64,000 nt of DNA from Alphaproteobacteria bacterium (GCA_031256515.1 JAIRQL010000100.1:19113-83112), one strand, 5' to 3'; shown: positions 1,720 through 20,231, counted from the first letter of the stretch. Notes: generated by a model not told the origin, from the letters alone. Numbers and translations are program-made.

Positions 1720-3183
1720 TTAGTTTTTATCAATCCATTTTTGCATGTATTGTCTGAGATTGTCGCTTTTAGCACCAAAAATAGCTTGGACTCCACTACC
1801 AACTACAATACAGCCTGCTGCTCCTAATCTCTTTAATTCATCTTGATTAACTTTAGATTTATCTTTTACTGAAATCCGTAATCTGGTAATACAAGCATCT
1901 AGGTTTGTAATATTTTCTTTACCGCCATAAGCAGCTACTAAATTACCACCTAACTCAAAATCTGCAGCATCTTCTTTTTTATTACTAGTTCCCATAACTC
2001 CATCTAAACCAATAATATTTAAATCGTCCCCTCTTCCTGGAGTTTTTAAATCAAAGGTTCTAATAGCAAACACAAATACAAAAAAGTAAATAAAGAAAGT
2101 AATTATTCCTAAAGGAATTAACATCCAAGCATTAGTTGATTGTGGATATAGTATTATAAAATCAAACAATCCTTGTGAAAATGTAGTTCCATGCCTAATT
2201 CCTAAAAGAATCACTGGAATATAACCAACTGCTGCTAATACACAATGAACTAAATACAAAGCTGGTGCTACAAAAAGAAATGAAAATTCTACTGGTTCGG
2301 TAATTCCGGTTAAAAAAGAAGTTAAAGCCGCTGAAATCATTAAAGAAGCTACCATTTTTTTATTTTCTGGTTTAGCGGTATATATCATGGCAAGTGCTGC
2401 ACCTGGTAAACCATACATACAAAATAAATAAGAGCCAGCTAAGTATCCCGCTGTGCTATCTCCATGTAAATATCTTGGAATTTCTCCGTGTACTACTTCA
2501 CCAGTGGATGTTAGATAAGAACCAATTTCAAAAAAGAATGGCACATTCCAAATATGATGTAAACCAGTTGGAATTAGTAATCTTTCTACAAAAGCATAAG
2601 TAGTATAAGCAATAAGAGGATTTTCGTAAGCAGCCCAGTTAGATCCCACATGGATAAGCCAACCCAAAGGCTGCCAAATAAATACGAATACAACTCCCAA
2701 TAACAAAGCACTTAAACAGGTTATAATTGGCACAAATCTTCTACCACTAAAAAAACCTAAGAAATCTGGCAATTTAATATTGTGATATTTATTATGACAA
2801 AAAGCTGCTAAAAAGCCGATAGCAATACCACCTAGTACTCCGACTTCAACTGAGTTAATACCTAAAATTTCACTAGTTTGCATTCCTATAAACCCAGCAA
2901 CAACCCCCATTGTAGCTAAAAATACATAATAACCACAAATCGCCGCTAAAGCAGCTACTCCATCCATTTTAGTAAAAGCAATAACTGTACCTACTGCAAA
3001 AAGTAGTGGCATAATGGTAAAGATAGAACCACCTGCAGCTTCCATCATTTGGGAAAACCATTGTGGAAGAAAAGGCAAATTAGCCGAACCAATCCCCAGT
3101 AAAATACCTGCAACAGGCAATACTGCCACAGGGAGCATAAAGGCTTGTCCTACCTTTTGTAAGTTAGAAAAAAGCGATCCCAT
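1720..3183 (-). CDS. ptsG: PTS glucose-specific EIICB component
   Basis: [34 protein letters not shown]-terminal [14 protein letters not shown] with phospho-Cys. Confidence 0.92.
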
Positions 3184-3376: not shown

Positions 3377-3682
3377 ATGACTAAGAATATTAAAGTACTT
3401 ATACCACTAATTGCTAAACAAGGAAGATTAGAAGAAGCCGAAAGAATTATTATGGAAATGATTCCTGCTATTAGAAATAACCCTAATTGTTTGGAATTTA
3501 GGGTATTTAAAGATATGCAGAATCCAAATAAGTTTACTCTCTTAGAATATTGGATAAACATGGAAGCTATTACTGAACATAGTAAAAAACCTTATATGGC
3601 AGAAATTATGGCTAAAAAATCTATCATATTTGAAGGTATAGCAGGAGAAATTGTTAGCGAATTATCAACTATAGAAAACTAA
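3377..3682 (+). CDS. ABM-domain (putative quinol monooxygenase) protein
   Basis: 101 aa; pattern IRNNPNCLEF...NKFTLLEYW...AITEH...PYM; AGGAG RBS upstream. Confidence 0.75.
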   Translation: MTKNIKVLIPLIAKQGRLEEAERIIMEMIPAIRNNPNCLEFRVFKDMQNPNKFTLLEYWINMEAITEHSKKPYMAEIMAKKSIIFEGIAGEIVSELSTIEN

Positions 3683-3823: not shown

Positions 3824-4138
3824 TTATCCTTCACTAATAATTTTATAGGTTATATCTCTACCCTCTTTATCTAAGATATATTTAACTTGCTCAGGATCTA
3901 CTAAAAAGAATTCCCTATTTGGACTTACTCTATATCTATCAAAAACTTCATGTAGTGCTTTTTCAGCTATTTTATAGTTTCTTACTTCATAAACACACTC
4001 TATTTCAAAAGGTGCTGGAATACTTGTAGGGCTATTTAACTCAGCCAATCTTCTTTTCATATTATTAGTTTGCCCTATTTTATATAAATTAGGCATGTAT
4101 TCATTTTTTATAAGATAGATATAACCTCTATTTCTCAT
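3824..4138 (-). CDS. T5orf172/MUG113-type GIY-YIG domain protein
   Basis: GYIYLIKN...YKIGQT...RRLAELNS.TSIPAPF...E..LH..FDRYRVSPNREFF. Confidence 0.85.
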   Translation of the reverse strand: MRNRGYIYLIKNEYMPNLYKIGQTNNMKRRLAELNSPTSIPAPFEIECVYEVRNYKIAEKALHEVFDRYRVSPNREFFLVDPEQVKYILDKEGRDITYKIISEG

Positions 4139-4216: not shown

Positions 4217-4232
4217 TGTTTCACATGAAATG
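4217..4232. other. Degenerate parS site
   Basis: TGTTTCACATGAAATG, 3 mismatches to TGTTTCACGTGAAACA. Confidence 0.6.
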
Positions 4233-4254
4233 TTAGCTATATATAATAAATATC

Positions 4255-5793
4255 TTATTTATCATTAATCTTATTAAAAATAACATAAATATTCCCATTG
4301 TATTCAAAAATAGAGCCTTCTTTAGGAAAGATAATATCTTTTTGAGTTTTGCTTTCAATAATATTTCTTAATTCTAAATCAATGTTATTATTATATAGAA
4401 TCTCAACATTAGAGTATCCTATATTTTTAACTAAAGCATTAACTTCATAATGATTAGCCCAAGTTTTAAAATCTGGAAAATATGAAAAAAATCTAAAAAG
4501 ATCCACTTCTCTTTTATTATATAATGAAAATATTTGATTATTATACCCATAAACATATATTTTTGTGCCTACTTTAGAACTTAATTTAAGAGCTTCTAAT
4601 TCAATCTTATCATAGATATATGTATTGACTCTTTCTATAATCTTATTGGCATCAAAAAATCTATCAATCAAAGAAATAGATATTAAAATATAAATAGATA
4701 AAACTACATATAATATTTTCACTAAATACTTATTAAAAACATTGAGTGAAATCATAAATAAAATAGCAAATAAATAATGAATACTATTTAACCTAACATT
4801 AGTTCCATGAATATTTATTAAAATATCCGAAATATAGGAAATAAACATCAAAATAAAAATGCATATAAAAATAAGGATAGATAGAAAATAAGTTCTTTTT
4901 TTGATGATACTATAAATTAATAACATAGTATTTAAAATAACAATGGAATAAAAATAAATAGGCATATGTTTTAATGTAAAAAAAACACTTTTTATTCTGG
5001 CAAAAAGGAGAGATAGACTATCTATTGGAATATACTCTCCTCTCCAACCTCCATACTGTTGTTCTGCATTAAGATAAAAAAGAAGAAACTTATTTATAGT
5101 ATAAAAAATTAAAATTCCTAATAAAATATATACTACATGAAGATATTTATCTTTAATTATTTGTTTAAATGTTACCTTATTATCTAATAAAAATTCACAA
5201 AATATAGATAAAAACAATATAGTAATATAAATATAAAAAACTACTGGCATTAAATTTAATGCAGCAAATATTGCCAAAGCAGAGACAAGTACTTTTAAAT
5301 ATATGTTTAAATTAGTATGTGTAAATACATAATAAGAGTATGATGTTATAAATATACCTAACTGTATCGTAAAAAACATTGTAGACCAATACATAAGGAA
5401 AATATTAAATGGATTTACTATTAATAATAACGATAAAAACAACCAAGATATTTTCGTTATATTAGGAAAAAACAACTTAATTAAAATAAAGTTATTTACA
5501 TAAAAAAGAACAAATCCAAATAGTAAAACTACTTTATAAGATAAATATAATTGGTTAACTATCTCTACAATTATTGGATAAAAAAATCTACTCTCACTAA
5601 TAATGCGATTTTTAACTTCATTTATAAAATTCATCTCGTTAACATAATAAATTATATCATCATGTGCAGAGATAAAATGGAAAAGTATAAAACATATTGC
5701 TAAAACTATCAATAAAAATATATAATAATTTCTATTCTCTTTTATATCTTTTAGAGCATAAGCTAGTAGGTTATTACTTGCTTTACTTAACAT
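4255..5793 (-). CDS. GtrII/GtrC-like polytopic membrane glycosyltransferase, paralog 1
   Basis: About 12 hydrophobic segments, N-terminal HDD, C-terminal soluble domain ending FPKEGSIFEYNGNIYVIF; clear paralog of 8552-10108; near gtrA/gtrB. Confidence 0.65.
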   Translation of the reverse strand: MLSKASNNLLAYALKDIKENRNYYIFLLIVLAICFILFHFISAHDDIIYYVNEMNFINEVKNRIISESRFFYPIIVEIVNQLYLSYKVVLLFGFVLFYVNNFILIKLFFPNITKISWLFLSLLLIVNPFNIFLMYWSTMFFTIQLGIFITSYSYYVFTHTNLNIYLKVLVSALAIFAALNLMPVVFYIYITILFLSIFCEFLLDNKVTFKQIIKDKYLHVVYILLGILIFYTINKFLLFYLNAEQQYGGWRGEYIPIDSLSLLFARIKSVFFTLKHMPIYFYSIVILNTMLLIYSIIKKRTYFLSILIFICIFILMFISYISDILINIHGTNVRLNSIHYLFAILFMISLNVFNKYLVKILYVVLSIYILISISLIDRFFDANKIIERVNTYIYDKIELEALKLSSKVGTKIYVYGYNNQIFSLYNKREVDLFRFFSYFPDFKTWANHYEVNALVKNIGYSNVEILYNNNIDLELRNIIESKTQKDIIFPKEGSIFEYNGNIYVIFNKINDK

Positions 5794-5820
5794 AAATATC
5801 CTTATTGTTGTTTATAAAGA

Positions 5821-5836
5821 TGTTTCACGTGAAACA
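5821..5836. other. parS site (perfect)
   Basis: TGTTTCACGTGAAACA. Confidence 0.92.
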
Positions 5837-5872
5837 TTATTTACAAAAATAAATACTTTTAAATTATTAGTT

Positions 5873-6781
5873 CTAAAAGTTTAATAGTTTTTTTAGTTCT
5901 TCTATATTAGAGTACTTAATTTTAACTTCGCCTGAATTTGTATCTTTAGGATTTATTTTAACTCTAATTTGAGGGAATTCCCCGACAACTTTATCTTGCC
6001 AAGCAAGTATTTCGGTACTTAATTTAGCAAGTTTTTCTTTTTCTCTTTCAAAAGCCACACTGTTATCTTTAACAAGCTTTTCGGCTTTTCTTACATTGAG
6101 GTCATCTTTAATAATTTTTTGAGCTATTTCCATAGGATTTTCAGCACTCACCAGCATTTTTGCATGCCCTGCTGAAATTGAACCGCTTTTTATCAGTTGT
6201 AAAATATCTTGGGGTAAACTTAATATTCTTAAAAAATTAGTAACATAGCTTCTACTTCTTCCTACTACTTTTGCTACATCTTCATGAGTATAATTAAACT
6301 CATCACAAAGATTTTTATAAGCTACAGCCTCTTCTATAACATCTAAATCTTTTCTATGGAGATTTTCAATTAAGCCAATCTCCATAACCTCTTTATCGCT
6401 AGCCTCTATAATAATTGCTGAAATTTGCTCTAATCCTGCTAACTTACTAGCACGACATCTTCTTTCTCCAGCAATAATTTCATATCTATTTTCATCAATT
6501 TTTCTTAAAAGAACTGGTTGAATTACACCTTTTTCTTTAATAGAATTTGCTAAGTTTTCTAACTCTTCCTGATTAAAAGTTTTTCTAGCTTGATAACGAG
6601 ATGGCTCACATTTGTTTAAATCTACCTTAACTATATGAAAAGCCGATGGAATATTTATTTCTTTGACTTCTTTATTACCAATATCACCTAATAATGCGGA
6701 AATTCCTTTGCCTAAAGATGGAGCTTTTTTAAAATTTCCTCTAGCCACCATTATTTCTTTTAAATCTATATCTTTTGTCAT
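5873..6781 (-). CDS. parB: Chromosome partition protein ParB
   Basis: LGKGISALLG, YQARKTF, IIAGERRCRA, ENLHRKDL, HTH GRSRSYVTNFLRIL. Confidence 0.95.
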   Translation of the reverse strand: MTKDIDLKEIMVARGNFKKAPSLGKGISALLGDIGNKEVKEINIPSAFHIVKVDLNKCEPSRYQARKTFNQEELENLANSIKEKGVIQPVLLRKIDENRYEIIAGERRCRASKLAGLEQISAIIIEASDKEVMEIGLIENLHRKDLDVIEEAVAYKNLCDEFNYTHEDVAKVVGRSRSYVTNFLRILSLPQDILQLIKSGSISAGHAKMLVSAENPMEIAQKIIKDDLNVRKAEKLVKDNSVAFEREKEKLAKLSTEILAWQDKVVGEFPQIRVKINPKDTNSGEVKIKYSNIEELKKLLNF

Positions 6782-6783
6782 GT

Positions 6784-7572
6784 TTATACCTTTTGTCTTT
6801 CTTGCAAGATTACCTCAGAGGCTAAATCTATATAAGCCTTTGAACCAACACAATTTGGATCATAAACTAAAACTGGATAGCCATGTGAAGGAGCTTCTGA
6901 AACTCTTACATTTCTTGGAATTACTGTATTATAAACTAATTTACCATAGTACTTTCTAACATCATCGTTTATCATTTTTGATAAATTATTTCTTGAATCG
7001 TACATGGTAAGCACAATACCACGAATTTTTAAACCAGTATTAATTGATACATTAATAGTTTCAATAGTTTTAATTAAATGGCTTAAACCTTCTAAAGCAA
7101 AATACTCACATTGTAAAGGAATCAATACCTCATGTGAAGCAGCTAAAGCATTTACTGTTAGTAATCCTAAAGAAGGCGGACAATCTATTAAAATATAGTC
7201 AAATTTTTGAGTAGCCTCTTGGAGAGCATTTTTAAGATAAAACTCTTTTTTCTCAATACTTGCTAATTCTACCTCTGCACCAGAAAGATCCATCGTTGCT
7301 GGAATTATACTTAGGTTAGGAATTGGAGTACTTATAGCAACTTTATCTAAAGGTTCTTGCCCTAAAATAAAATTATAGCTTGTAGCTTTAAACGAATCGT
7401 TATAAATTCCTAAACCACTGGTAGAATTACTTTGTGGATCAAGATCTACCACTAGCACTTTTCTTTTCATAGCACATAAAGCTGTTGCTAAATTCATAGT
7501 TGTGGTAGTTTTACCAACTCCACCTTTTTGATTAACAATAGAAATAATCTTTGAGTCTTTTTGTCCTTTCAT
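6784..7572 (-). CDS. parA: Chromosome partition ATPase ParA (start moved to ATG 7572)
   Basis: Deviant Walker A NQKGGVGKTTT, DLDPQ, IDCPPSLG, EAPSHG. Confidence 0.95.
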   Translation of the reverse strand: MKGQKDSKIISIVNQKGGVGKTTTTMNLATALCAMKRKVLVVDLDPQSNSTSGLGIYNDSFKATSYNFILGQEPLDKVAISTPIPNLSIIPATMDLSGAEVELASIEKKEFYLKNALQEATQKFDYILIDCPPSLGLLTVNALAASHEVLIPLQCEYFALEGLSHLIKTIETINVSINTGLKIRGIVLTMYDSRNNLSKMINDDVRKYYGKLVYNTVIPRNVRVSEAPSHGYPVLVYDPNCVGSKAYIDLASEVILQERQKV

Positions 7573-7751
7573 AATGTCTCTTATTTGTAGAAAGTTTCCT
7601 ATGCAATATTGCATTGTTTTATAGAAAATTTATATAATTAATTTAGCAATTAATCAAGATAAAACTGTTTTAAATGTTATTATAATATAATTATATATTA
7701 TAATTCCTTAGAATTTGCTATGTTTGTTTAGCTAATAAAAAATGGTCTTAA

Positions 7752-7767
7752 CGTTTCACGTGAAACA
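7752..7767. other. parS site
   Basis: CGTTTCACGTGAAACA, 1 mismatch. Confidence 0.88.
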
Positions 7768-7781
7768 TCTTTTGCTAATTA

Positions 7782-8480
7782 TTAAATATTTTCAACAATT
7801 ATAATCTTACTATCATGGTTAGTAAGGCTTTGCTTAACAGAAACTTTCAAATTACATTCTTGATTAGCAGATATTTGGTTTACTAGAGATTTATTTTTGC
7901 TATTTAAACCATCTATCTCCTGCAAATAATTTTGCCCCTTAAGGAATATACAAACACTATCTTGTTTGCTAAACATTCTTGCAGAATCTACTAAGCTATC
8001 TAATTTGGTTAATCCTCGTGAAAGGATAATATCTGCTTTAATGTTTTCTTTAGAAAAATCTTCAATTCTTTTATTTACTACAATCACATTTTTAAGTTCT
8101 AAAACTCTAACTATCTCAGATAAGAAAGCAGTTTTTTTAGAATTAGATTCTATTAAGTAATATTTATTTTTAGTATCAATAACAGCTAAAACTAAACCAG
8201 GAAAACCTGCACCTGAGCCTAAATCAAAAACATTTAAAGATTCACTAGATATATTTTGTGTATTATCTCTTGGTAAAGTCTCTTTTTTACTTTCTTCTAC
8301 TGCTTTGATTTCTTTAATAAGTTGTAGTGAATCATAAAAATGTCTTTGCCAAGCATTGGTAATAGTATCATTAGAAATTAGATTAAGAGACCTCTGCCAA
8401 AATAATAATATTTCTAAATATTTTTCTAGCTTTTTGTAGAGGAAATCTTCCACCTCTAAATCAAGAATATCAATATACAC
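7782..8480 (-). CDS. rsmG: 16S rRNA m7G527 methyltransferase RsmG/GidB (start proposed at GTG 8480, behind AGGGA RBS)
   Basis: WQRSLNLIS, RHFYDS, DLGSGAGFPG, ESNSKK, LKG motifs; between mnmG and parA. Confidence 0.92.
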   Translation of the reverse strand: MYIDILDLEVEDFLYKKLEKYLEILLFWQRSLNLISNDTITNAWQRHFYDSLQLIKEIKAVEESKKETLPRDNTQNISSESLNVFDLGSGAGFPGLVLAVIDTKNKYYLIESNSKKTAFLSEIVRVLELKNVIVVNKRIEDFSKENIKADIILSRGLTKLDSLVDSARMFSKQDSVCIFLKGQNYLQEIDGLNSKNKSLVNQISANQECNLKVSVKQSLTNHDSKIIIVENI

Positions 8481-8497
8481 TAATATATCCCTAGTTA

Positions 8498-8526
8498 TTA
8501 TAAACAATGTTTCACGTGAAACATTA
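8498..8526. repeat. 29-bp direct repeat copy A containing perfect parS (8508-8523)
   Basis: TTATAAACAATGTTTCACGTGAAACATTA, identical to 10127-10155. Confidence 0.9.
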
Positions 8527-8551
8527 GTCTAGCATATAATAATTTATAACT

Positions 8552-10108
8552 CTACCTATTATCTTTAGAGAAAATAACATAAATATTTCCATTATATTCA
8601 AAAATAGATCCTTCTTTTGGAAATAAAATATCTTTTTGAATTTTACTATCAATAATATTTCTTAGCTCTTTATCAATATTATCATCAAATAAATGTTCAA
8701 CATTATAATACCCAATATTACTAATTAAGAATGGTAACTGATAATAAAACTTAGAATACATTGTAGTTCTTAATTTATAAGAAAATATATCTAATAAATC
8801 CATATCCCTCTTAAATATATTAAAAGATTTGTTGGATCCATAAGTATATACTTTTGTTTTATAGTTAGAACTTTGACTTATGTTTAAATTAGAACTTTCT
8901 AATTCAACTCTATCGTAAATATATGTATTGATTCTATGTATATTAGCATTAATCTTAGAATACCTATCAATCAAAGATACAGACATTAAAATATAAATAG
9001 CTAAAATTACATATAATATTTTCACTAAATATTTATGAAAAACATTTAATGAAATCATAAATAAAATAGAAAATAAGTAGTATATACTATGTAATCTTAC
9101 AGGAGTCCCTCTAATATTTATTAGAATATCTGTAATATAAGGAACAAACATCAAAATAAAAATACAAATAAAGAAAAGTATAGAAAGCCAATATACTCTT
9201 CTCTTATAAAGATTGTAAACTAAAAACATAATATTAATAATAATTATAGAATAAAAATAAATAGGAAGTTGATTTTTTAAAGTAAGAAAAATATTTTTTA
9301 TTCTAGTAAAAAGAATTGATAAACTATCTATTGGAATATATTCACCTCGAGATGGTAAATAATTATGACTATTTATTGAAAAAATAAAAAACAACAACTT
9401 AATTATAATAAAATAAATAGTTACACTTAATAAAATATATATAATATGTAGATAGTTATCTTTAATAATTTTCTTAAATGTTGCTTCACCATCTAATAAA
9501 AATTTATAAAAAATAGATAAGAATAATATAGTTATATAAATATAAAAAATTACAGGCATTATTTGTATGGAAATACATAAAAATACAGCTAAAATAATTA
9601 TTTTTAGATATTTATTTAAACTAAAATATAAAAATATATAATAAGACCAAAATATCATAAACACACCTAATTGTATGCTAAAAAACATTGTAGACCAATA
9701 TAAAAGGTGAATATGAAAAGGATTTACTATTAATAATAAAGATAAAAATAACCAAGATATTTTTGTTATATTTGGAAAAAATAATTTAATTAAAACAAAA
9801 TTATTTATATAAAAAAGAATAAAACCAAATAATAAAATAATTTTAGGTGATAAGTATAATAAATTTATCATATAAATGATTATAGGATAGCCAGCTCTAT
9901 ATTCAGCAGATAATCTAAATAAAAAATCATTTTTGAAGTTAATACTATCATAAAAGTACATTAAGTCATCTTGAGCAAAAACAAATGAATAAGAAGAAAA
10001 AATTATAGCCAAGAATATCAAAAAAATTATATGATAATTTTTATTTTCTTTTATATCACTAAATATATAGGAAAACAGACTATTTTTCTGATTACTTAAT
10101 TTATTCAA
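8552..10108 (-). CDS. GtrII/GtrC-like polytopic membrane glycosyltransferase, paralog 2
   Basis: Paralog of 4255-5793 (shared FPNITKISWLFLSLLLIVNPF, RGEYIPIDSLS, FPKEGSIFEYNGNIYVIF); TTG start with AGGA RBS. Confidence 0.65.
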   Translation of the reverse strand: MNKLSNQKNSLFSYIFSDIKENKNYHIIFLIFLAIIFSSYSFVFAQDDLMYFYDSINFKNDFLFRLSAEYRAGYPIIIYMINLLYLSPKIILLFGFILFYINNFVLIKLFFPNITKISWLFLSLLLIVNPFHIHLLYWSTMFFSIQLGVFMIFWSYYIFLYFSLNKYLKIIILAVFLCISIQIMPVIFYIYITILFLSIFYKFLLDGEATFKKIIKDNYLHIIYILLSVTIYFIIIKLLFFIFSINSHNYLPSRGEYIPIDSLSILFTRIKNIFLTLKNQLPIYFYSIIIINIMFLVYNLYKRRVYWLSILFFICIFILMFVPYITDILINIRGTPVRLHSIYYLFSILFMISLNVFHKYLVKILYVILAIYILMSVSLIDRYSKINANIHRINTYIYDRVELESSNLNISQSSNYKTKVYTYGSNKSFNIFKRDMDLLDIFSYKLRTTMYSKFYYQLPFLISNIGYYNVEHLFDDNIDKELRNIIDSKIQKDILFPKEGSIFEYNGNIYVIFSKDNR

Positions 10109-10126
10109 TATAACTATCCTAATTTT

Positions 10127-10155
10127 TTATAAACAATGTTTCACGTGAAACATTA
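10127..10155. repeat. 29-bp direct repeat copy B containing perfect parS (10137-10152)
   Basis: TTATAAACAATGTTTCACGTGAAACATTA, identical to 8498-8526. Confidence 0.9.
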
Positions 10156-10171
10156 TGCTAATATTTTTATT

Positions 10172-12046
10172 TTACTTCTTCTGCTTTTTAATATAGGCTA
10201 ATAGGGCGATGGCGGAAGAAGGAGTAGCTCCACGAATTCTTAAGGCTGCACCTATGGTTGCAGGTTTAATTTTATTAAATTTTTCCACAAGTTCACTAGA
10301 AAGTCCATCTACTTGTAAATAATCAATATCTTCTGGGATATTAAGATTCTCTTCCTTTTTAAACAAAGCAATTTCTTCCTCTTGTTTTTTTAGATAATGA
10401 TAATATTTACAGTCAGTATTTATAACCTCCATAATATCTTTTGGAATATCTTTTAGTTCCTCCCAAATATTAGCTAAATCTTGAAAGTTAACCGTATTAA
10501 AAGAAAGTATCTCTAAAGCATTTCTTTTAATCCCATCTTGATTCATATGAATTCCAGCTTTTATTAACATTTGAGGAGTTGCAATTAATCCTTGCATAAT
10601 ATCTTTATACTTATTGATTAAATTCATTTTAGCCAAAAATTTATCATTCCTTTCAATAGAAACACAACCAGCTATAAAACCTTTAGCAGTTAATCTTCTA
10701 TCGGCATTATCGGCTCGCAACATCATACGATACTCTGCCCTACTGCTAAACATTCTGTAAGGTTCGCTAACTCCTTGATGGATTAAATCATCTATCATTA
10801 CCCCAATGTAAGATTCATCACGACCAAGTACGAATTTTTTTAAACTACCATCATTTTCTTTAATTTCTAAAGATTTTAAAGCCGCATTAATTCCAGCTAC
10901 TAAGCCTTGACCTGCTGCTTCTTCGTATCCTGTTGTACCATTAATTTGACCCGCTAAAAACAAATTTTTAACCTTATGAGTTTCTAAGGTATTAGCTAAT
11001 TCTTGTGGGTTTACATAATCGTACTCTATGGCATAGCCAAATCGTAAAATCTCTACACTTTCTAAGCCTTTCATAGAGCGAATGAATTTTTCTTGAACTT
11101 CTTCTGGTAGCGATGTGGATATACCATTAGGATACACCGTATCATCGTCTAACCCTTCTGGCTCTAAAAATATTTGGTGTTTGTTTTTATCGGCAAATCT
11201 AACCACTTTATCTTCTATAGAAGGACAATAGCGAGGACCAACTCCCGAAATATTACCACTATACATTGCCGATTTTTTAATATTATCTTTAATTATTTGA
11301 TGGGTTATTTCGTTAGTTTCGGTAATATAGCAAGATATTTGGGGTATATCTATTTTATCATTTAAAAATGAAAAAGGCTTTGGCTCAATATCCGCATCTT
11401 GTCTTTGCAAAACTGACCAGTTGATAGTTTTACCATTTAAACGGGCAGGTGTACCAGTTTTTAGCCTTGCTACCTCAAAATTTTGATTTTTTAAAAATTC
11501 ACTTAAACCAAGCGAAGGATTAGCCCCATATCTGCCACCAGGATAGTTTTTTGTTCCTATATGAATAACACCATTAAGAAAAGTTCCAGTGGTTAAAATC
11601 ACCGATTTTGTAGGTATTTTTTCACCGTTGCTTAAAACAACAGCTTCTATTATGCCATTATTAAGGATTATATTTTCTGCTGATCCTTCTAGAATAGTTA
11701 AATTATATTTTTTTTGATATTCTGATAATGTTTCACGTGAAACATTTTTATAAAGTTTTCTATCTGCTTGTGAACGAGGACCTTGAACCGCTGCCCCTTT
11801 AGAGGCATTAAGAACTCTAAATTGAATGCCAGATCTATCTATAATTCTACCCATTAAACCATCAAGAGCATCAATTTCTCTAACTATATGCCCTTTACCT
11901 AAGCCTCCAATTGCAGGATTACAAGACATTTGACCTATATCATCTAAATTAAGAGTAATAAGAAGAGCTTTAGCACCAACCTTAGCCGCCGCCGCTACTG
12001 CCTCTACTCCTGCATGCCCGCCACCAATAACTACTACATCATACAT
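10172..12046 (-). CDS. mnmG: tRNA uridine-5-carboxymethylaminomethyl modification enzyme MnmG/GidA (start ATG 12046)
   Basis: VIGGGHAGVEA, MSCNPAIGG, GPRYCPSIEDK, AGQINGTTGYEEAAGQG. Confidence 0.97.
   Translation of the reverse strand: MYDVVVIGGGHAGVEAVAAAAKVGAKALLITLNLDDIGQMSCNPAIGGLGKGHIVREIDALDGLMGRIIDRSGIQFRVLNASKGAAVQGPRSQADRKLYKNVSRETLSEYQKKYNLTILEGSAENIILNNGIIEAVVLSNGEKIPTKSVILTTGTFLNGVIHIGTKNYPGGRYGANPSLGLSEFLKNQNFEVARLKTGTPARLNGKTINWSVLQRQDADIEPKPFSFLNDKIDIPQISCYITETNEITHQIIKDNIKKSAMYSGNISGVGPRYCPSIEDKVVRFADKNKHQIFLEPEGLDDDTVYPNGISTSLPEEVQEKFIRSMKGLESVEILRFGYAIEYDYVNPQELANTLETHKVKNLFLAGQINGTTGYEEAAGQGLVAGINAALKSLEIKENDGSLKKFVLGRDESYIGVMIDDLIHQGVSEPYRMFSSRAEYRMMLRADNADRRLTAKGFIAGCVSIERNDKFLAKMNLINKYKDIMQGLIATPQMLIKAGIHMNQDGIKRNALEILSFNTVNFQDLANIWEELKDIPKDIMEVINTDCKYYHYLKKQEEEIALFKKEENLNIPEDIDYLQVDGLSSELVEKFNKIKPATIGAALRIRGATPSSAIALLAYIKKQKK
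11729..11744. other. parS site inside mnmG coding sequence
   Basis: Perfect TGTTTCACGTGAAACA; read on the coding strand as N-V-S-R-E-T. Confidence 0.85.
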
Positions 12047-12061
12047 ATAAATCACCTATAA

Positions 12062-12556
12062 CTAATATCTACGAGGCTTAAATGTATAAGTTTTTTTAGT
12101 TTTTTGCTTATGAGTATTTTGTTTATAAATAGGGCGATATAAATAATCTACGAAATAGTTAAAAGCATAGTGCTTTAAAGCAATATAAGTTAAAACAAAA
12201 ACTACCCCTAAACTTATAACCGCTGTAAAAGTTCTATCAATCCCTAATAAGCCACTTAAAAAAGCCATAAGGAATAAATTTACAAAAAAAGCTCCAGCTA
12301 GAACTATTATGGTTTTAATATATTCTGGCAGTGGAGCTACTCTTGTGTTAAATACAAAAAACCTAAACATACAGTAAGAAAAGCTAGCAGGAACAATAAA
12401 ATTGATAAACACTGCCATGTAATAAGAGTTTTTAAAATACATACCAAAAAACAAACTAACATAAAACAAATAAGCTACTAAAGAGTTTATTAGGGTAATA
12501 AGAGTATATCTTATTGTAATTGGTATTTTAAAATAGGTTTCAGCAATGTTTTTCAT
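12062..12556 (-). CDS. GtrA-family protein
   Basis: 4 TM segments, RYTLITLINSLVAY, FFVF motif, basic C-terminal tail; adjacent to a second GtrA and to GtrB. Confidence 0.7.
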   Translation of the reverse strand: MKNIAETYFKIPITIRYTLITLINSLVAYLFYVSLFFGMYFKNSYYMAVFINFIVPASFSYCMFRFFVFNTRVAPLPEYIKTIIVLAGAFFVNLFLMAFLSGLLGIDRTFTAVISLGVVFVLTYIALKHYAFNYFVDYLYRPIYKQNTHKQKTKKTYTFKPRRY

Positions 12557-12621
12557 TTTAATCTCTAGTATCCTTTATAGTATAAGAGTATATTATATCT
12601 TAATTATAGGGAAATAAAAAT

Positions 12622-13056
12622 TTATTTATCTGTATTGGTATCTCTTTTTTTAAATGCAAATATCTTTAAAACAAAATAAGTGATAATTGGCATAATAATA
12701 ACGGCAATACCTTGCCCCATGTAGGCAGACATTCCATACATATTGATAGTTATAAATAATATTAAGTAATTTACCGGATATAAGAAAGCATAAGATATAT
12801 AAGTAGAAACCCCTTCTTGTAGCCAATTACCTTTGGTTTTAAATACAAAAATCTTAAAAAGAATAAAATTATTAAGTATTCCAACAATAAAAGCAAATAT
12901 TAAAATGATAGCATAGTGAAGATTATTGCCCCAAAGGTAATAAAAGAGTGAGAATACAAGCCATCCAAAAACAGTATTGTAGCCACCTACTATAATAAAC
13001 CTAATAAATTGCGGAAAGTTGCACCAAATGTTGTATACTTTTTTTATTGTTTCCAT
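12622..13056 (-). CDS. gtrA: GtrA-family bactoprenol-linked sugar translocase
   Basis: QFIRFIIVGGYNTVFG, 4 TM segments, FVFK motif. Confidence 0.85.
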   Translation of the reverse strand: METIKKVYNIWCNFPQFIRFIIVGGYNTVFGWLVFSLFYYLWGNNLHYAIILIFAFIVGILNNFILFKIFVFKTKGNWLQEGVSTYISYAFLYPVNYLILFITINMYGMSAYMGQGIAVIIMPIITYFVLKIFAFKKRDTNTDK

Positions 13057-13076
13057 TGTTTGCCTCTATGGTGTTG

Positions 13077-14027
13077 TTAGTAAAAGTTGTTAATATTATC
13101 TTTGTTTATTATTTCATTAATTACCGAATTTGGCGAGCCTTTTATTTCATCAAAAATTCTTGAAATATACTCTCCTAAAAGCCCCATAAATAAAAATTGA
13201 ATGCCAAAAAGAAATAGTATAGATACCATAATAGAAGGGTATCCTCTTATAGAATTACCAAAAACTAATTTATCAATAACTATTACTATTCCATATATAA
13301 AAGCAACGGAAGCTAATATAAATCCAAAAACACTTGACAATCTAAGTGGCAAAGATGTTGTGTTAAAAATTCCATCTAAAGCTAATTTAAATAGTTTAAA
13401 ATAGTTAAATTTAGTTTTACCAAAAGCTCTTTTTTCTCTTTTATAAGAAACTTCAATCTGTGAAAAGCCAACCACATGGTAAATTCCTTTCATAAAAAGG
13501 TGTTTATTATTAATTTTAGCAATACTATTAATTACTTTTCTATCTAGTAATCTAAAATCACCAGCATTAAAAGGGATTTTAATTCCAGAAATTAAGTTAT
13601 AGAATTTATAAAACAAAGAAGATGTTTTTTTCTTTAAAAAGCTATCAGTATCTCGGTTGTTTCTAACTCCATAAACCATATTATAGCCTTGTTGCCATAA
13701 AGATATAAAATCCTTTATTATATAAAGGGGATCTTGTAAATCTACATCACAAATAATGCAAGCATCAGCTTTGGTATTTTTAATTCCAGCCATAATTGCT
13801 TGCTCTTTACCAAAATTTTTAGAAAAATCTATTAAAGATACATTGCCATATTTTCTTATAGCTTGTAAAATAAGGAGTTTAGTATTATCACTACTACCAT
13901 CATTTATAAAACAGTAAGTAAACGAAACACTAGGGATATCTTTAATTACCTTATTGCATTCCTCAATAAAGTTAAAAATATTTTCTTCCTCATTGTATAC
14001 TGGTAGTAATATTTCTATGGTTTTCAT
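13077..14027 (-). CDS. gtrB: GT2 bactoprenol glycosyltransferase (GtrB-like)
   Basis: LPVYNEE, NDGSSD, FSKNFGKEQA, DVDLQDP, GDFRLLDR, two C-terminal TM helices. Confidence 0.9.
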   Translation of the reverse strand: MKTIEILLPVYNEEENIFNFIEECNKVIKDIPSVSFTYCFINDGSSDNTKLLILQAIRKYGNVSLIDFSKNFGKEQAIMAGIKNTKADACIICDVDLQDPLYIIKDFISLWQQGYNMVYGVRNNRDTDSFLKKKTSSLFYKFYNLISGIKIPFNAGDFRLLDRKVINSIAKINNKHLFMKGIYHVVGFSQIEVSYKREKRAFGKTKFNYFKLFKLALDGIFNTTSLPLRLSSVFGFILASVAFIYGIVIVIDKLVFGNSIRGYPSIMVSILFLFGIQFLFMGLLGEYISRIFDEIKGSPNSVINEIINKDNINNFY

Positions 14028-15451
14028 GGCTTATTATTTTTTTTTTCTATTATTTTGTACTCTGTTGAATCATCGTCAGTAATTTCAAATTTTAAATCTG
14101 GATGACCTCCACTATACTTTTTAACTGCATTTTCACAGTAAGGAACTGCCCAATCTGCATAAAAACATCTAATAATAAAATCTCTCTCACTTTTTGGAAT
14201 TTTTAATATCAAATTATTACCTTTTTTTAAAGGATAATCATGAGTGCTTGCTATATTTTTAATTAATTTATAGTAGGTTTTATCAATATCATTTATATAT
14301 TTATATTTAATAATAGTTTTATTTAATAAGATAAATGAGAAAATAAAAAACACTATGAAATATATGGAATTTACAATTATAACATTAGTTCTTTTATTAA
14401 AAATAGCAAATATTAAATTTAAAAAGATTACACAAAAACATAATATTAAAAACAAACTTAATGTAAATTTACCTATTCCACCTGCTCACCAATCAGTCTT
14501 ACTAGCAAATATAAGAGGTATTCCTAAGTATAGGCAGATTAAAAAAGAAATTTTAATAAATTTTTCATTAATAAAAAAATTAAGTAATTTTTTGTATAAT
14601 AAAAAAAGTGAGAATAAAACAAATAAAATTAAAAATAATAAAAATAACTTATTGTTAATATGAAAAACATTATTAATATCAAATAATGATAGTTTATATC
14701 TGTGAGGATAAAGATTAAAAAAATTCTCATCCATATCAATTAATTTTCTTGATCTAATTTCAGATGAAAATAAGATTACAGAAACAAAACCAAAAATCCC
14801 AAAAATTATACCATTTATACTCCACAGAGGTATCCTTTTATTCTTCAAATAATAAAATAAAACCGATAAACCCATCATTCCTAAAAAAATAGGCACAGAA
14901 ACATACGAGTTCATAAAAGATGTAAAATATACAACAGGAACTAATAAAAATATAATCCACTTATTATTAATAATATTTTTATTATAAAATAAATAAAAAT
15001 ATGGGATAAATACTAACAACAGTAAAACATTTCCAAATAAATGATTTAATGATCCAGATACCCACAAAGATAATTCTACAAACATGAATAATGATTGAAT
15101 ACTAACCCATAAAACAAATATTATAAAAATAAAAAATATATCTTTGTAAGATTTAGGTAGCTTTGTAAAAGAATAAAAGAAAACTAAATTAATAAATATA
15201 ATATGAACTATAGAGATAAATATATTATAATATATTTTATCAAATCTTAAAAAGATTATAGATAGAGTCTCTCCAACTCTTGCATTCCATTCCATTGATT
15301 GGATAATGCTTCTATTATAAATAATTTTACCTATATCATCTATAAAGTTTAGTGGAAAAATAGAGTTAAAATAATAAAAATACATAAATATAAGTATATT
15401 AAGTATTATAAAGCTGATTAATACTTTTATATCTAAATTATTTTTTAACAT
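14024..15451 (-). pseudogene. GtrC-type (DUF6056-like) membrane glycosyltransferase interrupted by one in-frame TGA at 14486-14488
   Basis: Track ORFs 14486-15463 and 14024-14455 are in the same frame; read-through gives a protein of almost the same length as the intact 477-aa paralog upstream and aligned with it to the C-terminus (KFEITDDDSTEYKIIE vs KFEITNDDSLEYKIIE). Confidence 0.8.
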
Positions 15452-16871
15452 TTGTTCTTTCAATTATTTTATACTCTAATGAATCATCATTAGTAATTTC
15501 AAATTTAGTATTAAGATTCCCACCATAAAATTTTATCATAGATTTACCACACCAGTTATAAGCATCATCAATTAAACAACCCATATAAAAATCTTCTTTT
15601 ATTAAAATAACTAATTCACTATCTTTTGGATAACTTTTAGTTTCTTTAATTAAACTATTAATTTTTAAAATATTATTACTTAAATCTACAACCTGCTTAT
15701 TATGATGAATAGTTTTTATTATTAATAAACCTAAAAAAATTAAACCTATTAATCCCATAAATAAATATTTTATTTTACTGTTAGTTAATTTATTAAATAG
15801 GAGTTCAATGCAAACAATAAAGAACATTATGGCTAAAAATCTATTAAATACTATATTTCTTTCAGCTATCCAAGGTCCAACTGTTAATATGATAATACTA
15901 CCAAAATATAAACTAAAGATTAAAAAAATTTTAATAAAAGTTTCATTTTTCAAGATCCTTATATCTTTTCTAAAAATTAATACACACAATATATATGTTA
16001 TAAAAATCAATAATATCAATAAGAATAATTTATAATTTATATATAAATATTTGTTAATAAGTATAAAATTATAACGATAAACATGAAAATCTTTTATTAT
16101 ACTTTTTTCAACCGTCCCTGTTTGAGATGAAAGTATAAGAACACATAAAAACCCTAAAAATCCTGAGATAATTCCAACAATAGACCAAACTGGAATTTTT
16201 TTGTTTTTAAAATAATAAAATAAAACCGATAAACCCATCATTCCTAAAAATAAAGGCACAGAAGTATATGAGTTCATAAAAGATATAAAATATATAATTG
16301 GAACTAATAAAAATATAACCCAATTATTCTTAATAATATTTTTATTATAAAACAAATAAAAATATGGGATAAATACTAACAACAGTAAAACATTTCCAAA
16401 TAAATGATTTAATGTACTTGCTACCCATAAACTATTTTCAGAAAAAATTATTTGTAAAGAAATATATAAAACAAAAATAATAAACAAATAAAATACATCT
16501 TTATATCTACTAGGAGATTTAGAGAAAGAATAGAAAAATACTAAATTTATAAAAACAATATTTATAAATGAAATAAAAACATCATAATAAAACTTATCAA
16601 AATATTTAAATATATAAGATAATGACTCTCCTATTCTGGCATTCCAATGCAATGAATTTTTAACATGATTATAAATTAGTTCTATCTTTGAAAAATCAAG
16701 ATTTTTAGCAATTAAATACTCAGAAGTGTTTACATAATCATCATTAAATAAAGGAAAAATGGAACTAAAATAATAGAAGTATATAAATATTAATATATTT
16801 ATAGATACATACAAAAGCCAAAATACTTTTTTATTTTCTTCAAAGTTATTTACCAATGCAGAACTTCCCAA
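15438..16871 (-). CDS. GtrC-type (DUF6056-like) polytopic membrane glycosyltransferase, intact paralog (true start probably a TTG overlapping the mnmE stop)
   Basis: FPLFNDD, WNARIGE, LWVASTLNHL motifs; many TM segments; family name recalled, not searched. Confidence 0.65.
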   Translation of the reverse strand: MGSSALVNNFEENKKVFWLLYVSINILIFIYFYYFSSIFPLFNDDYVNTSEYLIAKNLDFSKIELIYNHVKNSLHWNARIGESLSYIFKYFDKFYYDVFISFINIVFINLVFFYSFSKSPSRYKDVFYLFIIFVLYISLQIIFSENSLWVASTLNHLFGNVLLLLVFIPYFYLFYNKNIIKNNWVIFLLVPIIYFISFMNSYTSVPLFLGMMGLSVLFYYFKNKKIPVWSIVGIISGFLGFLCVLILSSQTGTVEKSIIKDFHVYRYNFILINKYLYINYKLFLLILLIFITYILCVLIFRKDIRILKNETFIKIFLIFSLYFGSIIILTVGPWIAERNIVFNRFLAIMFFIVCIELLFNKLTNSKIKYLFMGLIGLIFLGLLIIKTIHHNKQVVDLSNNILKINSLIKETKSYPKDSELVILIKEDFYMGCLIDDAYNWCGKSMIKFYGGNLNTKFEITNDDSLEYKIIERTNVKK

Positions 16872-18165
16872 ATATGATGTCTAGTATATCTTCAATATCA
16901 GTTTTTCCTAGAATTTTGCCGATATTATTTAAAGCATTTCTTAGGTGAAAGGCTGAGATTATTATATCATGATTATTATCTAGTGAAAGTTTAATCTCGC
17001 TAAGGCAATTTTGCAGAATTTCATTATGTCTTTCTTGTAAAACTACTGGGTTTTCATAGGTTGCTGTAATTTCAGATAGTTTTTTTATTAAATCATTTTC
17101 AAACTTATCAAGCCCTATTTTTTCTGCCACCGAAACTAAATAAGCATTATTAATTTTTCTAACATTAGGATTTACATCAATTTTATTAATTAACAAAAAA
17201 GTGTCTTCATCTATGAAATCTTTAATGTTATTATAAGAATCTTCAAAATTTGTAGCATCTAGCATAATTATTTTAATATCGCTATTTTGCGATTTTTTAA
17301 TTGCCCGTATTACACCTTCTTTTTCTATTTCGTCAGTTGTATCTCTAATACCTGCAGTATCAGCAATTACAACCGGAAATCCACCAATATCTAAAAATAC
17401 TTCTATAACATCACGAGTTGTTCCAGCAATATTAGAAACTATTGCTACATCACGGTTAGATAAATAATTAATTAATGAAGATTTCCCAACATTAGGGCTT
17501 CCTAATATAGCTACAACTATTCCATCTTTAAGTTTTTTAATTTTCTTACCATTGATGATTTCTTTTTCCATCTCAGTAATAAGTAAGCTAATATTATTAT
17601 TAACTATAGAATAGGTCTCTTCTGGAATATCTTCATCAGAAAAATCTATGGTTGCCTCTAACAAGGCTACGATTTCTTTAAGTTTTTCTCCCCACTGAAT
17701 ATACTTACTACCTACCTCTCCTTGTAATTCCCTCAACGATTGTTTTCTTTGATTTGAGGTTTGAGAGGCAATTAAATCGGCAATACCCTCAGCTTGGATT
17801 AAATCTAGTTTACCATTTTCTAAAGCCCGTCTTGTAAATTCACCTGGTTCAGCCATGCGATGATCTGCCATTTGTGAAAGAGTACTTAGGAGGTCTTTAA
17901 TTACTGCCAGTGAACCATGAATATGATACTCCACAAGAGTTTCACCAGTATAGCTTTTACCTTCTTCAAAGTAAAGAACTAGAGCATTATCCAGTAAGTC
18001 GCCATTTTTATCGTAGATATTACAGTGATGAGCTTTTTGGGGAGTGAATTTATCTTTTTTCGTTATGATTTTTAAACTATTAAATGCTTCTCTACCAGAT
18101 ACCCGCACAATAGCAATTGCAGAGGATACAAAAGCGGTAGATAAAGCATAAATAGTGTGTTTCAT
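16846..18165 (-). CDS. mnmE: tRNA modification GTPase MnmE/TrmE
   Basis: AIVRVSG, SYTGE, GEFTRRALENGKLDL, GSPNVGKSS, DTAG, C-terminal FGKFCIGK. Confidence 0.97.
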   Translation of the reverse strand: MKHTIYALSTAFVSSAIAIVRVSGREAFNSLKIITKKDKFTPQKAHHCNIYDKNGDLLDNALVLYFEEGKSYTGETLVEYHIHGSLAVIKDLLSTLSQMADHRMAEPGEFTRRALENGKLDLIQAEGIADLIASQTSNQRKQSLRELQGEVGSKYIQWGEKLKEIVALLEATIDFSDEDIPEETYSIVNNNISLLITEMEKEIINGKKIKKLKDGIVVAILGSPNVGKSSLINYLSNRDVAIVSNIAGTTRDVIEVFLDIGGFPVVIADTAGIRDTTDEIEKEGVIRAIKKSQNSDIKIIMLDATNFEDSYNNIKDFIDEDTFLLINKIDVNPNVRKINNAYLVSVAEKIGLDKFENDLIKKLSEITATYENPVVLQERHNEILQNCLSEIKLSLDNNHDIIISAFHLRNALNNIGKILGKTDIEDILDIIFGKFCIGK

Positions 18166-18167
18166 TT

Positions 18168-19439
18168 TTACGAATTCATGTTTTGGAAGAAATCTTCATT
18201 AGTTTTATAAAGTTTCATTTTATCAAGTAAAAATTCCATAGAATCATTAGCACCCATTTGCAATAAAATTCTTCTTAATACCCACATTCTTTGTAGAGTA
18301 TTAGCATCTAGGAGTAATTCTTCTTTTCTAGTACCAGATTTAGTAATATCTATAGATGGGAAAACTCTTTTATCAGATAATTTTCTATCTAAAACTATTT
18401 CCGCATTACCTGTACCTTTAAATTCCTCAAAAATAACTTCATCCATTCTTGAGCCAGTTTCTACAAGAGCTGTTGAAATTATGGTTAAAGAACCACCGTC
18501 TTCAATATTTCTAGCTGCTCCAAAGAATCTTTTAGGCTTTTGTAAAGCATTAGCATCTACCCCACCAGTTAATACTTTACCACTTGATGGCACAACAGTA
18601 TTATAAGCACGGGCTAATCTTGTGATAGAATCTAATAAAATTACCACATCTTTTTTATTTTCAACAAGTCTTTTAGCTTTTTCTAAAACCATTTCGGCAA
18701 CTTGAACATGTCTTGTAGCCGGTTCATCAAAGGTTGAACTTATAACTTCACCTTTAACCGACCTCATCATATCGGTAACTTCTTCTGGTCTTTCATCTAT
18801 TAATAATACTATTAAATAGCATTCAGGATGATTAGAAGATATAGAATTAGCAATATTTTGTAGCATAACTGTTTTACCAGTTCTTGGGGGAGCTACCACT
18901 AATGCTCTTTGTCCTTTACCGATAGGAGTTATTAAATCTAAAATTCTCCCTGTAAAATCTTTAGTAGAAGAATTTATTACTTCCATACAAAGGCGAGAGT
19001 CAGGATAGAGTGGGGTGAGATTATCAAAATTAATTCTTTGTTTTAAAGAGTAGGGATCTTGGAAGTTTACTTGGTTAATTTTTTGTAGAGCAAAGTATTT
19101 TTCCGAATCCTTAGGAGACCTAATTTCTCCCTCAACAGTATCACCAGTTTTTAAACCCATTTTTCTAATTTGGTTAGGAGATACATAAATATCATCTGGT
19201 CCTGGTAAGTAATTGGCTTCGCTGGAACGAAGAAAGCCATAACCATCGGCAAGAACTTCAAGAACTCCCTGTCCGATAATTGTAATTTCTTTTTCAGCTA
19301 GTTTTTTAAGGATAGAGAACATTAAGTCTTGCTTTCTTAAATCTGCAGGATTCTCTATTTCAATTTGTTTTGCAAAATCTATTAATCCAGCTAAAGAACT
19401 ATGTTTAAGTTCAGCAAGATGTTTAATATCAGTATTCAT
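18168..19439 (-). CDS. rho: Transcription termination factor Rho
   Basis: [43 protein letters not shown]. Confidence 0.98.
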
Positions 19440-19963: not shown

Positions 19964-20231
19964 ATATATTCTATTTATTTTTATATATAGATTAGTATTA
20001 ATTATATAGGCTGTTAGTTCTATGATTTAAATTTTATTAATAGTTTATCCACATAGTTATAAACACTTGAATCTTAATAAAAATATAGTGAAATTAGCTT
20101 TATTCAAATTTAGATTTTATTTTACTAACAAGTGGATAAGTTTGTTAATAAATATTATAATAATAGTTGATAAAAATCATGAAAAAATTTATCCACAGGA
20201 TATACACAGATTATAAATAGAGTTATTCAAT
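19964..20231. other. Putative oriC (DnaA-box cluster)
   Basis: Perfect TTATCCACA at 20045-20053 and 20189-20197; near-consensus boxes at 20057-20065, 20131-20139 (rev), 20143-20151 (rev), 20200-20208; AT-rich 19964-20040; gene-strand switch; typical alphaproteobacterial rho...aroE-coaE-dnaQ context. Confidence 0.85.

Follow-up and report, generated by a model that had tools for sequence, protein, structure and literature searches.

Why should a row of housekeeping genes near a replication origin be interrupted by genes for membrane glycosylation? This question is raised by a 64,000-nucleotide stretch of an alphaproteobacterial genome (GCA_031256515.1, JAIRQL010000100.1:19113-83112; hereafter the window, with positions counted from its first letter), in which genes for two PF19528 membrane proteins, one GtrB, two GtrA and two divergent GtrII-like proteins break up the order rho-mnmE-mnmG-rsmG-parA-parB. 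We consider it likely that the inserted genes encode a multi-component transmembrane (Gtr-type) glycosylation system in a variable origin-side locus, with the core or lipid A of lipopolysaccharide (LPS) as the likely acceptor. In the proposed mechanism, GtrB would use a nucleotide sugar to attach a hexose to undecaprenyl phosphate on the cytoplasmic side of the membrane, and the divergent GtrA pair, probably acting together, would bring the lipid-linked sugar across to the periplasmic side. There, the sugar would be passed on to different positions of an envelope glycoconjugate by four polytopic transferases, which belong to two GtrC-type families unrelated to each other: two are of the STM0557/DUF6056 type, one of them interrupted by a nonsense codon, and two are GtrII-like.

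The host genome is a Hepatincolaceae metagenome-assembled genome (MAG) of 1.49 Mb in 104 contigs with a GC content of 29.4%. The placement in this family rests on another member, G005, whose Rho protein (UQY80726.1) is that of 'Candidatus Hepatincola sp. Av'. According to PMC11724238, Hepatincolaceae are extracellular gut symbionts of ecdysozoans that attach to host microvilli; the family undergoes genome reduction (PMC13515547), and LPS synthesis has been reported for all of it. All ten species of the family in the genome collection (G000, the host, to G009) and one marine contig from TARA Oceans were compared.

The donor module: GtrB and two GtrA proteins

The gtrB gene (13077-14027, minus strand) encodes, by sequence, a GtrB-type polyprenyl-phosphate hexosyltransferase with a glycosyltransferase family 2 (GT2) domain and two C-terminal transmembrane (TM) helices. 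The protein matched PF00535 with 81.9 bits, and the DxD motif of the GT2 catalytic domain was present as D94-V95-D96 (DVD), aligned to the DAD of the solved Synechocystis GtrB (5EKP). The similarity covered the full length, C-terminal membrane helices included, both to 5EKP (251 bits, residues 4-306 of 316) and to the phage family phrog_841, 'GtrB-like O-antigen conversion' (319 bits, positions 2-305 of 309). Judged by these matches, the protein is a clear member of the GtrB family. Its best NCBIfam matches were PgfS (219 bits) and ArnC (168 bits), and the ArnC structure chain 9hwj was matched with 148 bits. Because both NCBIfam matches fell below their equivalog cut-offs, the sugar was left unassigned by sequence. 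A tblastn search of the genome turned up no further GtrB, so that a single donor module would serve all four transferases, as had been proposed for this locus.

Two genes encode GtrA-family proteins, both on the minus strand: gtrA1 (12622-13056), a small membrane protein of 144 aa and putative subunit of a lipid-linked-sugar flippase, and gtrA2 (12062-12556), a second, divergent member of 164 aa. They matched PF04138 with 53.1 and 37.9 bits, respectively (cut-off 26.1), and share about 25% identity. Orthologues of GtrA1 (65-71% identity) adjoin GtrB in the same-genus species G001 and G002 and in the TARA contig. Those of GtrA2 hold the same place upstream of mnmG, even in G003, where GtrA2 is the sole gene of the islet, as we call the genes between mnmE and mnmG. 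Since the GtrA1-GtrA2 pair is kept in five lineages (the host, G001, G002, the TARA contig and Hepatincola Av), the two proteins may form a heteromeric flippase. Even for the type members of GtrA, the flipping role is an assumption.

Two families of polytopic transferases

The first family consists of DUF6056_a (15438-16871, minus strand), an intact polytopic transferase of the STM0557/GtrC type by sequence, and its paralogue DUF6056_b (14024-15463, minus strand), which contains one in-frame TGA. DUF6056_a matched PF19528 with 82.4 bits over profile positions 6-433 of 442, and the N-terminal part of DUF6056_b (14486-15463, 325 aa) did so with 61.2 bits (cut-off 27 in both cases). PF19528 (DUF6056) was renamed GT_STM0557_N in a later Pfam release; in Salmonella, STM0557 serves as gtrC in the gtrLT2_I cluster, which is responsible for O12-2 glucosylation (PMC2909390, PMC3688519). 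The two paralogues share about 50% identity, and DUF6056_a shares 47-49% with its orthologue in G002. DUF6056_a carries a DD motif just after TM1, in which D40 is invariant in the alignment of the family (A5), and the DUF6056 proteins have a DD or xD motif at the same place as the conserved Asp of the GtrII-like proteins.

The second family comprises two divergent GtrII-like polytopic proteins, both on the minus strand and 61% identical to each other: GtrII_b (8552-10108), between mnmG and rsmG, and GtrII_a (4255-5793), after parB. Searching a GtrII-like profile against 1.84 billion representatives returned six proteins at E <= 0.001, and the only distant relatives found (P0008-P0010) were true PF14264 members (39-106 bits). 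D45, in an AHDD motif of the first periplasmic loop directly after TM1, was invariant in two extended GtrII-like alignments (A2 and A3), each of which included true PF14264 members. By these searches, the GtrII-like proteins are a nearly orphan subfamily. Word-based homologue searches gave 4, 2 and 7 matches, with AT-rich low-complexity proteins saturating the candidates, and a related-locus search returned one locus in genome contigs and none in metagenome contigs. The alignments were therefore shallow and the AlphaFold2 (AF2) models weak. For GtrII_a, the model reached a predicted local distance difference test (pLDDT) score of 62 and a predicted TM-score (pTM) of 0.65, and its top PDB fold matches in Foldseek were ArnT (5ezm, prob 0.89), followed by STT3, AftD and AftA. 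These four are GT-C enzymes, and a GT-C fold is weakly indicated by the model for the GtrII-like proteins. Profile searches of PDB sequences gave no match for either family, and viral fold searches with models of both were uninformative.

A profile-profile alignment of the two families (hhalign) gave a probability of 3%, and we treat them as two separate families on this comparison. The GtrC families of Salmonella are likewise reported to be without relationship to each other (PMC3688519). Duplication trees ended in unresolved trichotomies, one of the host's DUF6056_a and DUF6056_b with the G002 protein, and the other of GtrII_a and GtrII_b with the G001 protein. The transferase genes run open for 470-520 codons in DNA of about 20% GC, and the inserted genes have orthologues in two sister species at 47-58% identity; for both reasons, we regard them as real genes and not as chance open reading frames (ORFs).

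Several points weigh against a system of four working transferases with one donor and an LPS acceptor. The frame 14024-15451 of DUF6056_b is not open, having one in-frame TGA at 14486-14488. The AF2 model of DUF6056_a, made from a four-sequence alignment, was unusable (pLDDT 50, pTM 0.32). GtrII_a scored 29.2 bits against PF14264, 0.8 below the cut-off of 30, GtrII_b and its G001 orthologue had no Pfam match, and the fold matches of GtrII_a were weak (E >= 0.27, TM ~0.3). The GtrII copies lie 2-8 kb from gtrAB, and it is an assumption that they draw on the same donor. Moreover, no acceptor pathway was identified in the genome, and the MAG is 93.7% complete, so that genes reported as not found may fall in gaps.

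The internal TGA deserves closer attention. The earlier note had described two GtrA, one GtrB and four GtrC-type genes from two paralogue families in one orientation, and Pfam matches and translation placed all of them on the minus strand; of the four transferase genes, however, only three are intact. Reading TGA as Trp was rejected, since DUF6056_b itself ends in TGA and its homologues have no conserved Trp at this column, where they carry varied residues. The 143 codons after the TGA contain no further stop, and their translation can be aligned to the C-terminal end of DUF6056_a. The TGA could thus be a recent nonsense allele, possibly polymorphic in the population. Premature stops occur in gtrC of Salmonella too (PMC3688519).

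The same codon is the first argument for regarding the repertoire as a decaying remnant, that is, as redundant duplicates in a reductive genome with one working transferase or none. This would fit the reduction of genomes in the family (PMC13515547) and the relatives G003, G004, G006 and G007, which have lost everything or all but one GtrA. We nevertheless hold it to be highly improbable: three of the four transferase genes are intact at a GC content where random stops are frequent, the end of DUF6056_b is still open, the paralogues are full length though diverged to 50-61% identity, and the overlapping starts are preserved.

Probable acceptor

Besides carrying LpxC, the genome was searched for the machinery of O-antigen synthesis. 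No true O-antigen ligase (WaaL), no Wzx (PF01943) and no Bac_transf (PF02397) were found in the 93.7%-complete MAG, in which their absence is not proven. The sole PF04932 match (21.8 bits) was C67:1916-2479, a PagP-like outer-membrane protein of 188 aa and not WaaL. Because the genome makes lipid A and shows no O-antigen ligase or flippase, we infer that the acceptor is most likely the LPS core or lipid A rather than a classical O-antigen.

These results make an O-antigen acceptor, which had been implied for this locus, doubtful. In a classical seroconversion, the four transferases would add glucose to different residues of the repeating O-antigen unit, the role that gtrABC of prophages has in Shigella and Salmonella. 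In favour of it, each of the two polytopic families has a member (GtrII or STM0557) that is proven to glucosylate O-antigen, GtrB is similar to the phage 'O-antigen conversion' family, and the same islet holds nucleotide-sugar and GT1/GT2 genes in G001 and an RfbT-like methyltransferase in G002. Considering that neither a true ligase nor Wzx nor the initiating transferase Bac_transf was found in this genome, and that the gene order, the 4:1:2 ratio and the lack of phage context differ from the O-antigen cassettes, we regard this explanation as unlikely.

The acceptor might also lie outside LPS, among periplasmic or surface proteins or in another envelope polymer, by analogy with streptococcal PgfS/PgfM acting on adhesins. 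PgfS was the best NCBIfam match of GtrB, albeit below the cut-off, no O-antigen machinery was found, and the extracellular attachment of Hepatincolaceae to host microvilli (PMC11724238) would fit this reading. Nothing in the locus indicates a protein acceptor, however, and both polytopic families are so far known for glycan acceptors, which makes a non-LPS acceptor quite unlikely in our estimate. The LPS core or lipid A remains the acceptor that we prefer.

Arrangement of the inserted genes

From 19439 down to 3824, all real genes lie on the minus strand, as judged by translation and gene order. The housekeeping genes are rho (18168-19439), mnmE (16846-18165), mnmG (10172-12055), rsmG (7782-8507), parA (6784-7614) and parB (5873-6781). 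By translation and synteny, mnmE is the upstream border of the islet; mnmG is its downstream border, and rsmG, parA and parB lie between the two GtrII copies.

The genes are tightly packed. The stop codon of mnmE is at 16846-16848, and DUF6056_a starts at TTG 16871 or at TTG 16856 (the latter being the database gene call, 472 aa); with either start, it overlaps the 3' end of mnmE. The ATG of DUF6056_b at 15451 gives a 14-nt overlap with the end of DUF6056_a, and the ATG of gtrB at 14027 overlaps the TGA stop of DUF6056_b as ATGA. The overlaps from mnmE through both DUF6056 genes into gtrB, which the earlier note had read as coupling, are therefore real. Downstream, spacers of 20 nt (gtrB-gtrA1), 65 nt (gtrA1-gtrA2) and 6 nt (gtrA2-mnmG) follow. 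Overlaps measure 4-26 nt and spacers 6-79 nt, and no terminator-like site was found in any minus-strand intergenic gap from rho to GtrII_a. Because of the overlaps, the short spacers and the lack of terminator-like sites in the gaps, the inserted genes are probably transcribed together with the housekeeping genes, and read-through from housekeeping promoters is plausible.

A search for simple repeats found no convincing tract for phase variation in the region. The longest homopolymer of the region is an A10 tract on the coding strand (14037-14046), at the extreme 3' end of DUF6056_b and 10-20 nt before the overlapping start of gtrB, where slippage could alter the coupling to gtrB.

Beyond parB, three further genes have been gained relative to G001, G003 and G004 in the interval up to a tadA-like deaminase (1247-1669). 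They are a T5orf172-domain (GIY-YIG-like) gene (3824-4138, minus strand), an antibiotic biosynthesis monooxygenase (ABM) gene (3377-3682, plus strand) and a gene for a phosphotransferase system (PTS) EIICB permease (1720-3183).

A variable slot in Hepatincolaceae

Gtr-type genes occupy the gaps of rho, mnmE and mnmG in eight of the ten family species and in the TARA contig, with a different content each time. In the host (G000), the order is mnmE, two DUF6056 genes, GtrB, GtrA1, GtrA2, mnmG, one GtrII gene, rsmG, parAB and the other GtrII gene. Among the species of the same genus, G001 has the following series between mnmE and mnmG: a GtrII gene, a Pfam-less polytopic protein of 579 aa, a different GtrB (34% identity), GtrA1, two unknown genes, an epimerase, an NTP-transferase, a GT1, a GT2/GT1 fusion and GtrA2. 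G002 has an FkbM/RfbT-like methyltransferase, one DUF6056 gene, GtrB (82% identity), GtrA1 and, after a contig break, GtrA2, and G003 has GtrA2 alone. Elsewhere in the family, the interval between mnmE and mnmG holds one GtrA in G007 and a 602-aa polytopic protein, GtrB and two GtrA in G005 (Hepatincola Av). In G009, mnmE is followed by about 1.7 kb, GtrB and the contig end. G008 has a GtrA between rho and mnmE and a DUF6056-like gene between mnmE and the contig end, and in G004 and G006 mnmE adjoins mnmG directly. The TARA contig carries a DUF6056 gene between rho and mnmE, and a 577-aa polytopic protein, a GT2, two oxidoreductases, a 312-aa protein, GtrA1 and GtrA2 between mnmE and mnmG.

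A sample of 150 other alphaproteobacterial families included 48 in which a GtrA domain as well as mnmG turned up, and in none of these 48 did a GtrA lie on the mnmG contig within 39 kb. The slot is thus old and family-wide while its content turns over, and the graft is not peculiar to this genome. The earlier note had named an unchanged block across the wider family as evidence against its proposal; the content was found to differ among the relatives. Peculiar to the host genome are the four transferase genes and the two GtrII copies beyond mnmG. Judged by gene content, the gaps of rho-mnmE-mnmG-rsmG-parAB act as a variable glycan locus in Hepatincolaceae.

The absence of phage genes, claimed before, was borne out: none was found inside the islet, and neither polytopic family had a tblastn match in 50,697 phage records or a PHROG match. 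The GC content at third codon positions (GC3) was 0.13-0.15 in the inserts and 0.16-0.20 in the housekeeping genes, and the low total GC of the inserts is due to the first two codon positions and hence to the amino-acid composition of membrane proteins. A recent phage or foreign origin was rejected, given a GC3 near that of the housekeeping genes and no phage match for the polytopic proteins.

Three side observations concern other glycan-related genes. First, a third polytopic family of 577-602 aa, with about 11-12 hydrophobic segments, a soluble C-terminal domain and no Pfam match, occurs in G001 (L021:11569-13308), the TARA contig (L018:10756-12489) and Hepatincola Av (L015:7741-9549). It is always found directly upstream of a second GtrB type and is likely a further GtrC-like family by sequence and position. 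Second, the G002 methyltransferase between mnmE and the DUF6056 gene (L012:7078-8091) is of the FkbM type with a weak match to the RfbT family of Vibrio cholerae, and represents another glycan-modifying gene in the same slot. Third, another contig of the host genome (C13:2686-5525) carries a gene pair unrelated to the main locus, in which a Pfam-less polytopic protein of 579 aa with an HWDD motif lies directly upstream of a GT2-GtrA fusion (PF00535 and PF04138). Judging by its domain content, this pair is a further investment of the genome in lipid-linked glycosylation.

Hepatincolaceae are uncultured and genome-reduced, and they attach to the gut microvilli of their hosts, which are arthropods and other ecdysozoans. 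The three papers on their genomes treat LPS only as an envelope component that has been kept and mention no O-antigen or Gtr genes; one of them gives glycosyltransferases only as a count of carbohydrate-active enzymes (CAZymes). A glycosylation locus that varies between species is a concrete candidate for a basis of host specificity, adhesion, or escape from phages or host immunity. The locus also indicates that a Gtr-type system can find a stable place, and diversify, within a highly conserved alphaproteobacterial operon rather than on a prophage. Additionally, the nearly orphan GtrII-like subfamily and the Pfam-less family of about 580 aa are targets for structural and functional work on GT-C enzymes.

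Origin of replication and parS sites

An AT-rich gap of 268 nt at 19964-20231 is probably oriC. The window has only two perfect DnaA boxes (TTATCCACA), and both fall in this gap (20045 and 20189), together with a one-mismatch box at 20131. Gene orientation switches at this gap, and the cumulative GC-skew minimum of the 186-kb contig falls at about 17-19 kb of the window. The inserted genes lie 3-16 kb from this probable origin, in agreement with the oriC-proximal position proposed before, and are oriented away from the origin, on the leading strand. A gene-dosage benefit of this position is only an idea.

The inserts beyond the islet are associated with parS sites (TGTTTCACGTGAAACA). Perfect sites occur at 5821, 8508, 10137 and 11729, a one-mismatch site at 7752 and a site with three mismatches at 4217; the cluster spans 4217-11744, and where chance alone would give 0.7 strand-hits, 14 were counted. 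Both GtrII genes have such a site on either side. GtrII_b has perfect sites upstream (10137-10152) and downstream (8508-8523), and GtrII_a has a perfect site upstream (5821-5836) and the degenerate one downstream (4217-4232). Of the other two, the one-mismatch site (7752-7767) belongs to the rsmG-parA-parB region and the perfect site at 11729-11744 lies inside mnmG. At the DNA level, the stretch over which the two GtrII units are similar has the upstream and the downstream parS as its exact limits. The relatives have parS at equivalent, ancestral places, namely within mnmG, in the mnmG/rsmG and rsmG/parA gaps, and downstream of parB. The parS-rich gaps take up other cargo too: in G002, the rsmG/parA and mnmG/rsmG gaps (L013 789-1650 and 2276-3261) hold paralogous ORFs of 165 and 240 codons, the shorter of which starts with a signal-peptide-like hydrophobic stretch.

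From these boundaries, it is a reasonable guess that the cassettes move by recombination at parS. A bolder proposal would make the origin-proximal row rho-mnmE-mnmG-rsmG-parAB a dedicated locus of glycan diversification, in which the parS sites would have a second role as places where transferase cassettes land and are exchanged, and ParB loading and gene dosage would tie surface decoration to replication and segregation; this we offer as a long shot.

Comparison with known systems

The enterobacterial prophage gtrABC clusters (gtrII of Shigella SfII; Salmonella P22 and gtrLT2_I, STM0557-0559) have the same three roles and families, namely GtrA (PF04138), GtrB (phrog_841) and a polytopic transferase (PF14264 or PF19528). 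Whereas these clusters have the order A-B-C and a 1:1:1 ratio, the locus described here has C-C-B-A-A plus two remote C genes and a ratio of 4:1:2. It is embedded in rho-mnmE-mnmG-rsmG-parAB beside oriC and not in a prophage or tRNA island, no O-antigen ligase or flippase was found in its genome, and its GtrII-like proteins are very divergent, with the six matches among 1.84 billion representatives given above.

Gram-positive systems, such as CsdAB/CD/EF with CflA in Lactococcus lactis, GtlAB/GtcA in Listeria and CsbB/YfhO in Bacillus subtilis, follow the same logic of a GT-A enzyme, a GtrA-type flippase and a GT-C enzyme. In L. lactis, one flippase (CflA) serves three GT-A/GT-C pairs, and the GT-C partners are very divergent and have a DxD-like motif (PMC8035078). 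PF19528 also matched in an L. lactis control genome. However, their targets are the teichoic acids and rhamnan of monoderm walls, and one GT-A per GT-C is their usual arrangement, in contrast to the diderm host studied here, in which one GT-A and two GtrA paralogues accompany four GT-C candidates.

The Rgt and Arn pathways are also similar in logic. In rhizobia, a single donor synthase, RgtE, feeds several galacturonic acid (GalA) transferases of lipid A and the core, RgtA-D/F (PMC7663294). Rgt is thus an alphaproteobacterial precedent for one bactoprenyl-phosphate sugar synthase serving several acceptor-specific polytopic transferases on the LPS core and lipid A. With regard to the Arn pathway (ArnC/ArnE-F/ArnT), ArnC was the second-best named match of GtrB, and ArnT was the top fold match of GtrII_a. 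The Arn flippase is ArnE/F, and the candidates here are of the GtrA type instead. Unlike those of Rgt and Arn, the polytopic proteins belong to the GtrII and STM0557 families and not to ArnT/PMT_2, and their genes lie inside a housekeeping operon. What distinguishes this locus is its unusual stoichiometry, its very divergent transferases and its setting in a lineage-specific, parS-studded and origin-proximal variable locus within that operon.

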